Positions 51,682-52,023 of a DNA stretch of 64,000 nucleotides are shown here, piece after piece. Position 1 is the first letter of the stretch, and the number at the start of each line of letters is the position of its first letter. A program made the position numbers and the translations under genes. The notes beneath the pieces were generated by a model, which was given only the letters and a program-made list of their open reading frames with translations, searched no databases and was not told the DNA's origin. The DNA is taken from assembly GCF_988242995.1 (NCBI RefSeq), contig NZ_OZ547043.1; one strand, written 5' to 3'.

Positions 51682-52023
51682 TTGTATGCGATATCATCCA
51701 AAAGGATGAGTTCCTGCATGCAGGATATTTACAATCGTAAAAACTACACTATGATACCCAGAGTGTCAGTTTGTATAAAAACTCTGTTTACGCTGAAGAA
51801 ACCATTGAGATGCAACTTAAAGTTGGTAAACATGCCAGTCAAAATATATAATATTATGATTCCACGCAGCTATATATAATATAACAGATTGGTTTAATAA
51901 TTTGTCTTTGTGAGTTAAATACATAATTTTATACTTGTGATGCAATGAGATTTTCCTTATTGTTGAACTGGCGAATATTGATTTTCCACCTATACTTACC
52001 TGGTGTAACCCCAATGATATCAG

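Follow-up and report, generated by a model that had tools for sequence, protein, structure and literature searches.

A probable control region and 5' leader of a PatE-like AraC-family regulator in the Q-to-holin gap of a lambdoid Escherichia coli prophage

Introduction

How is an AraC-family regulator gene expressed when it sits as cargo between the antiterminator gene Q and the holin gene of a lambdoid prophage, and what part does the AT-rich DNA in front of it play? The question is raised by a DLP12-like prophage of Escherichia coli that is contained in contig NZ_OZ547043.1 of the NCBI RefSeq assembly GCF_988242995.1, of which a stretch of 64,000 nucleotides (here called the window) was analyzed. 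A first-pass annotation, made from the letters of the window, had described the DNA upstream of the regulator as non-coding and strongly AT-rich, likened it to the long, curved leaders of horizontally acquired genes silenced by nucleoid proteins, and proposed that it holds the regulator's own promoter and so makes the gene independent of phage late transcription. These proposals were followed up by sequence comparison across E. coli genomes, by promoter, terminator and RNA structure prediction, and by comparison with published transcription start sites of a related regulator gene, patE.

Results

The regulator gene, its start codon, and its neighbors

The genes and signals that define the locus are listed below by their positions in the window.

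49457-49849, antiterminator Q
49948-49971, strong tR'-like intrinsic terminator, just 3' of Q
50005-50529, minus strand, lipocalin (Blc-like) gene
50530-50721, divergent intergenic region between the lipocalin and ybgA-like genes
50722-51681, plus strand, YbgA-like gene (2-thiouracil desulfurase domain plus DUF1722), 43.5% G+C
51682-52032, non-coding AT-rich interval of 351 bp between the YbgA-like gene and the AraC-like regulator
52022-52035, plus strand, Shine-Dalgarno sequence AGGTGG (52022-27), 5-nt spacer and start codon ATG (52033-35)
52033-52764, plus strand, AraC-family regulator of 243 aa
52826-52847, plus strand, intrinsic terminator that closes the regulator unit, just 5' of the holin gene
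52953 onward, holin, followed by lysozyme, spanin and Bor/Iss (Bor/Iss on the minus strand)

The placement of the cassette between Q and holin was the same in the carrier genomes that were inspected and in lambda-like phage genomes (1H12 and its relatives). The regulator carries several marks of a moron: insertion between neighbors that belong to the basic phage plan (Q and the late promoter on one side, the lysis genes on the other), a base composition unlike that of the flanking phage genes (32% vs. 49% G+C), and a terminator of its own (52826-52847). In foreign composition, own terminator and putative own promoter it resembles the lambdoid morons of the Q-to-S interval, the stx genes being the familiar case, as well as lom and bor elsewhere in lambda; with Q-to-S morons such as stx it further shares an insertion point 3' of pR'/tR' and 5' of the lysis genes. 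Unlike those morons, the cargo here is a set of three genes (lipocalin, YbgA-like, regulator), and our literature search found no account of this three-gene set in the Q-to-holin gap. The lipocalin and YbgA-like genes, which are constant companions of the regulator, have a higher G+C content (43-44%). The terminator at 52826-52847 has a predicted folding energy of -12.1 kcal/mol (z -2.2) and is kept in all three cassette variants described below while its flanks have diverged; this conserved terminator 3' of the regulator therefore makes the gene look like an autonomous unit.

Directly behind Q, a promoter-like region beginning at 49860 precedes the strong terminator at 49948-49971, over which an Rfam model gave a weak match (E 0.009, under the gathering score). 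Passages of PMC7547250 describe, for Stx phages, a short pR'-tR' RNA that arises from the position equivalent to 49860-49971 and is reported as the regulatory sRNA StxS.

The interval had earlier been ended in front of a GTG at 52024, the start given by the mechanical list of open reading frames. That boundary is wrong: the regulator almost certainly begins at ATG 52033, which places the true intergenic span at 51682-52032. This start is the one assigned by PGAP in RefSeq genomes that are 100% identical here; it yields an N-terminus that aligns with PatE from M1 to M1, and the GTG at 52024 is overlapped by the Shine-Dalgarno sequence. A full-length alignment with PatE (Sakai ECs_0287 = EDL933 z0321) gives 53% identity, a level that indicates a paralogue and not an orthologue. 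Among NCBIfam profiles the top match, also full-length, was YdeO, at 126 bits vs. a cut-off of 348. By these sequence comparisons, the regulator is an uncharacterised paralogue within the PatE/YdeO/AppY group. Searches of O157 genomes with the regulator gene returned matches of only ~70% DNA identity over half of the gene.

Base composition, curvature, and H-NS

The G+C content was 0.325 both for the interval as first delimited (51682-52023) and for 51682-52032, and only 2.2% of all 351-bp windows within the 64 kb were equally low. The description as AT-rich is borne out, at 32.5% G+C vs. 49.2% for the whole window. Because the coding sequence of the regulator is itself 31.8% G+C, and low G+C continues unbroken from about 51.6 to 52.9 kb, AT-richness is a property of the whole regulator module of ~1.2 kb and is not special to the leader. 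The drop in composition suggests that this 32% G+C module was a separate addition to the 44% G+C lipocalin/YbgA pair.

Of the "long, curved, AT-rich leader" initially proposed, the AT-richness holds, while curvature is estimated to be modest and local, with only one 150-bp segment among the most curved 3%. An approximate wedge model ranked the end-to-end ratio of 51751-51900 at the 2.8th percentile and those of the other segments between the 12th and the 97th. Runs of at least four A or T numbered seven in the interval, about the count that our own arithmetic gives by chance for this composition, and they were not helically phased.

H-NS coats AT-rich tracts such as one of 1.2 kb at 32% G+C, and the excess of AT over the host average extends here over several hundred base pairs (~1.2 kb in all). 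Silencing of the regulator region by H-NS is plausible from composition, and H-NS could be expected to coat the whole 1.2 kb AT island. Matches to the high-affinity H-NS motif TCGATAAATT with at most two mismatches were absent from 51682-52032, and across the window they occurred at the frequency expected by chance (68 vs. 72 +/- 8). ChIP or expression data for the locus were not found in the literature, and a preprint on phage sRNA and xenogeneic silencing omits the genes of the cassette.

Coding potential and RNA genes

The two open reading frames in the interval are as originally described, overlapping and on opposite strands (51682-51879, plus; 51817-52014, minus). Both encode 65 aa from a TTG start, and both are disrupted in the two other cassette variants by an indel of 54 bp, an extensive replacement and a frame change of 2 nt. 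A further ORF of 28 codons (51945-52031) ends in a TAA stop codon located 1 nt 5' of the regulator ATG. Neither the 65-aa ORFs nor the 28-codon ORF matched a Pfam or NCBIfam profile; Rfam covariance models gave no match at E<=1 over 51682-52032, and ARAGORN detected no tRNA or tmRNA in the interval. The claim that the interval is non-coding is upheld: it contains no conserved ORF and no recognizable protein or RNA family.

Distribution and three cassette variants

The segment from ybgA to the regulator (window 51400-52900) was found in 1086 of 5426 complete E. coli genomes. In the phage and plasmid collections the sequence of the interval occurred nowhere outside the context of the cassette. 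A scan of one bacterial genome per species, made in search of additional covariation, returned only four loci and essentially no relatives outside E. coli; two of these were distant, and the other two were close matches on short contigs that are assigned to unrelated organisms but may be E. coli DNA. Alignment of the interval comprised 16 distinct sequences, which represent only three independent, diverged variants:

window type, interval of 351 bp
Qin type, interval of 396 bp, ~79% identical to the window type; regulator protein 86% identical
O155 type, interval of 318 bp, alignable only at its ends; regulator 82% identical

Across these variants the interval shows an indel-rich, variable middle held between invariant blocks, with the following elements.

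51682-51800, moderately conserved part
51712-51725, plus strand, 5-bp hairpin UCCUG/CAGGA (51712-16 / 51721-25)
51728-51755, plus strand, distal promoter-like site P1: TTTACA (51728-33), 16-nt spacer, TATGAT (51750-55)
51800-51930, variable spacer of ~130 bp, less conserved than any other stretch of the cassette
51932-52032, plus strand, conserved proximal block of ~100 nt, 100% identical between the window and the Qin type
51990-51997, plus strand, proximal promoter candidate P2, CTATACTT: C at -13 and -10 hexamer TATACT (51991-51996)

The distal site P1 and the variable spacer

Promoter-like hexamers are no more frequent in this region than in shuffled sequence (13 found vs. 12.0 +/- 3.5), and since such matches occur at chance density, the case for a promoter is built on conservation. 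P1 was the top sigma-70-type match in the 4 kb scanned (10/12), with a C at -13, a predicted start at ~51762 and a predicted leader of ~270 nt. Its hexamers and -13C were invariant in all 16 distinct sequences and lie within an invariant block of 28 nt. The small hairpin at 51712-51725 lies 30 nt past the stop codon of the ybgA-like gene and 2 nt 5' of the P1 -35 hexamer. Two of its five pairs have changed on both sides in the O155 type and are still paired; it is nonetheless thermodynamically weak (z ~ -1) and, comparing the rule by eye, narrowly misses the T-run requirement of the terminator scan. It may represent a weak terminator element that provides a leaky 3' end for ybgA.

In the spacer downstream, identity in 60-column windows falls to 0.15-0.3, with a 54-bp indel relative to the Qin type and large-scale replacement in the O155 type. 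A candidate promoter here, TTGGTA-18-TATAAT at 51823-51852 (10/12), is split by the Qin-type 54-bp indel and absent from the O155 type, and is probably no conserved promoter. An extended -10 candidate at 51938-51946 (TGATGCAAT) was likewise set aside, since its critical -11 base is G in the window type.

Insertions of IS1 were observed in unrelated strains at no fewer than three points within ~180 bp, with junctions at 51716, 51781 and 51885-51893 (loci L081, L004, L079 and L080). The insertion in L079 (51885-51893) is flanked by a 9-bp duplication, CAGATTGGT, and leaves the regulator and the proximal block intact; in the three others the regulator has been lost to deletions next to the element. 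Two of the three junctions belong to the AT-rich spacer, one within it (51885-51893) and one just outside (51781), and this stretch appears to be a hot spot for IS1 through which the regulator can be lost. Recurrent IS1 insertion suits an AT-rich target and is no evidence of H-NS.

The proximal block and candidate promoter P2

The proximal block is identical between the window and Qin types although their regulator genes differ by ~11%, and sub-blocks of it are invariant in the O155 type as well. In the identity profile, the proximal 100 nt and the first ~60 nt of the coding sequence form the most conserved part of the regulator module. Identity between window and Qin types is 100% from 51932 to 52090 (~150 nt, to about codon 20), and the remaining gene differs by 7-30% per 60-nt window; this may reflect either a strong constraint on translation initiation or a recent recombination patch.

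Within the block, TTTCCACCTATACTTAC is invariant across the three variants save for one natural T-to-C change (TACACT for TATACT, in L020). The P2 candidate CTATACTT is a single occurrence in the 64 kb, where one would be expected by chance. It is preceded by a weak -35 element (CTGGCG, 3/6), and its predicted start at ~52003 would give a leader of ~30 nt. A C at -13, a poor -35 element and recognition dominated by the -10 element are features of sigma-S promoters (PMC3141248), and on this basis P2 would be read by sigma-S.

Comparison with patE, appY, and ydeO

The closest parallel is patE of prophage CP-933H/Sp1 in EHEC O157:H7, for which three plus-strand start sites have been mapped by Cappable-seq in EDL933 (PMC10469882, supplementary files 5, 6, and 10).

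308891, 210 nt before the ATG (-210), detected in 4 of 8 conditions (PMC10469882)
309055, 46 nt before the ATG (-46), detected in 7 of 8 conditions and dominant (PMC10469882)
309074, 27 nt before the ATG (-27), detected in exponential M9 only (PMC10469882)

Homology between the two upstream regions starts exactly at AC(C/A)TATACTT and extends from the TATACT hexamer through the final ~45 nt before the ATG, so that proximal promoter candidate and leader are shared, along with a GGTGGAT-type Shine-Dalgarno sequence and the start codon; both genes are AT-rich prophage cargo. The hexamer in the window predicts a patE start at about 309074 or 309075. The mapped site at 309074 lies exactly 7 nt past TATACT, and bTSSfinder assigned to it a -35 of ttggca and a -10 of tatact (PMC10469882). 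Because a patE start was mapped 7 nt after the homologous hexamer, P2 is, by homology, a plausible proximal promoter. No clear counterpart of the dominant -46 start was seen in the window, since the sequence 5' of TATACT is not homologous; beyond -45 all similarity ends, which makes P1, the spacer and the CCACCT block peculiar to the cassette described here. The gene context of patE also differs, as it lies behind tail-fibre genes and has neither a ybgA nor a lipocalin partner. Expression of patE is higher in stationary phase (PMC10877973).

Cappable-seq additionally places start sites inside patE (L078/EDL933), two in sense orientation (309353 and 309686, plus strand) and one antisense (309730, minus strand), with the site at 309353 being strongly condition-regulated (PMC10469882). 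In Sakai, about 600 nt 5' of patE, a long gene-free region contains a tRNA-like remnant (L005, 13438-13516) with a weak Rfam match to tRNA-Sec (E 0.004) and no gene called by ARAGORN; it may be an old attachment-site scar.

Two K-12 genes offer further comparisons. Like the regulator of the window, appY and ydeO encode AraC regulators of prophages or islands. The best profile match to YdeO scores far under its cut-off, which marks the window regulator as no equivalog. The related appY gene, cargo of the DLP12 prophage, depends on H-NS, RpoS, and ArcA (PMC10057817), an H-NS-linked style of regulation of the kind originally proposed for the window.

Complementarity to the Shine-Dalgarno region

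The proximal block also contains sequences complementary to the ribosome-binding site.

51981-51991, plus strand, left arm AUUUUCCACCU, which as part of an inverted repeat could pair with the Shine-Dalgarno region (52022-52032)
51986-51991, anti-Shine-Dalgarno sequence CCACCU
51998-52003, anti-Shine-Dalgarno sequence ACCUGG

The repeat (I2) is 11 nt long and 91% complementary, with its arms 30 nt apart, and reaches across the Shine-Dalgarno sequence to the last base in front of the AUG.

Discussion

Taken together, these results make it probable that the interval serves a PatE-like AraC-family regulator as its non-coding control region and 5' leader, the regulator being a moron lodged between Q and holin in a DLP12/lambda-like prophage. 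That the regulator has a promoter of its own, as had been proposed, receives indirect support from two sides: the P1 and TATACT blocks have stayed invariant while their surroundings diverged by 20-85%, and the proximal leader is homologous to that of patE, where a start has been mapped just past the hexamer. Sequence conservation and homology argue here for sites that would fire as promoters.

The main competing explanation dispenses with an autonomous promoter and places the regulator last in an operon with ybgA that is transcribed from 50530-50721, with the 351 bp as nothing more than a long untranslated spacer. The two genes do lie on the same strand and always occur together in the Q-to-holin cassette, no strong intrinsic terminator separates them, and promoter-like matches in the region do not exceed chance. 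The operon would, however, leave the invariant P1 and TATACT blocks in need of an explanation, and the paralogue patE has three mapped starts within 210 nt of its ATG without any ybgA upstream. The fall in G+C from 43.5% in ybgA to 32% points, moreover, to a module acquired separately, and in the sequence of the strain with IS1 at 51885-51893 the regulator and the proximal block are intact. On this balance we regard the operon as unlikely. A small protein or regulatory upstream ORF encoded by the interval is far less probable. Its main candidate is the 28-codon ORF, which the window type and the Qin type both preserve in full and whose TAA abuts the regulator ATG in a manner that would allow translational coupling, and some phage records annotate "hypothetical proteins" within the interval. 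The O155 type, however, reduces this ORF to 11 codons, and patE has no counterpart of it in its leader; read by eye, the bases 5' of 51945 contain no Shine-Dalgarno sequence, the two SNPs seen in the ORF are both non-synonymous, and profile searches placed it in no family. Indels interrupt the 65-aa ORFs. Least probable of all is a small regulatory RNA gene on either strand. Passages of PMC7547250 describe sRNAs encoded in prophage intergenic regions of pathogenic E. coli, and the interval does contain conserved blocks, but it gave no Rfam match, showed no significant structure, and has no terminator-like site on either strand.

Translational control offers a different account of the proximal block, whose main role would then be to hide the ribosome-binding site behind CCACCU and/or ACCUGG, either as an RNA thermometer or by keeping long read-through transcripts silent while short proximal ones are translated. 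Beyond the reach of the inverted repeat up to the AUG, the Shine-Dalgarno sequence is predicted to be paired in all four lineages (unpaired probability 0.01-0.13; patE uses different partners), each lineage keeps at least one anti-Shine-Dalgarno sequence, and predicted accessibility rises ~4-fold, from ~0.01-0.06 in long transcripts to 0.16-0.25 in transcripts that start at P2. Against this, dinucleotide-shuffled leaders had a mean unpaired probability of 0.12-0.32, and 5-16% of them hid the Shine-Dalgarno sequence at least as well; folding energies were ordinary (z -0.7, and z +0.5 for the global leader). Seven pairs of the stem are invariant, no compensatory change occurs, and two outer pairs are broken in the O155 type. 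No melting was predicted between 20 and 42 C, over which the unpaired probability stays at 0.04-0.07, and the main patE transcript (-46) contains an anti-Shine-Dalgarno sequence of its own. A sequestering hairpin or thermometer was rejected on these grounds, as it did no better than shuffled sequence and lacked both covariation and predicted melting, and translational control as the main function of the block seems to us distinctly unlikely. A specific form of it, more doubtful again, is that the block gates translation according to where transcripts start: long RNAs from ybgA, from P1 or from Q-antiterminated polymerase would be poorly translated, while short RNAs from the sigma-S-like CTATACTT, which start just 3' of CCACCU/ACCUGG, would be translated. 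If true, the regulator would be made in stationary-phase lysogens and not in lytic growth, despite its position inside the late operon.

Returning to the reading that we prefer, a control region with its own promoter or promoters, the following picture would emerge. Passages of PMC7547250 describe the lambdoid late promoter as constitutive and terminated in lysogens; in the lysogen, transcription from it would halt at the terminator right after Q, and the regulator would therefore be expressed from its own promoter or promoters, with transcripts ending at the terminator at 52826-52847, which would also insulate the lysis genes. P1, just past the ybgA-like gene, would initiate at ~51762; the AT-rich spacer of ~130 bp would evolve fast and be able to absorb indels and IS1 insertions; and the proximal ~100 nt would carry the -10-dominated, sigma-S-like promoter CTATACTT (start ~52003), the ribosome-binding site and the ATG at 52033. 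During lytic growth the picture would change. Since the cassette lies 3' of Q and its tR'-like terminator and 5' of holin, Q-modified polymerase should traverse it, and expression of the regulator from its own promoter would be additional to late transcription, not independent of it. The original proposal of independence is in that sense half right: with a promoter of its own the gene would gain expression in the lysogen, but it would not be uncoupled from the late operon, through which Q-modified polymerase should read.

The control region itself shows only the architecture expected of horizontally acquired regulator genes. The gene that it would serve is of broader concern: about one-fifth of complete E. 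coli genomes carry the cassette, and its regulator is closely related to PatE and resembles PsrB, AppY, and YdeO. In EHEC, acid resistance and type III secretion of the host are rewired by the prophage-borne PatE, and knowing where the promoter of its paralogue lies and how it is silenced is a first step toward asking whether this regulator, too, reprograms the physiology of its host.
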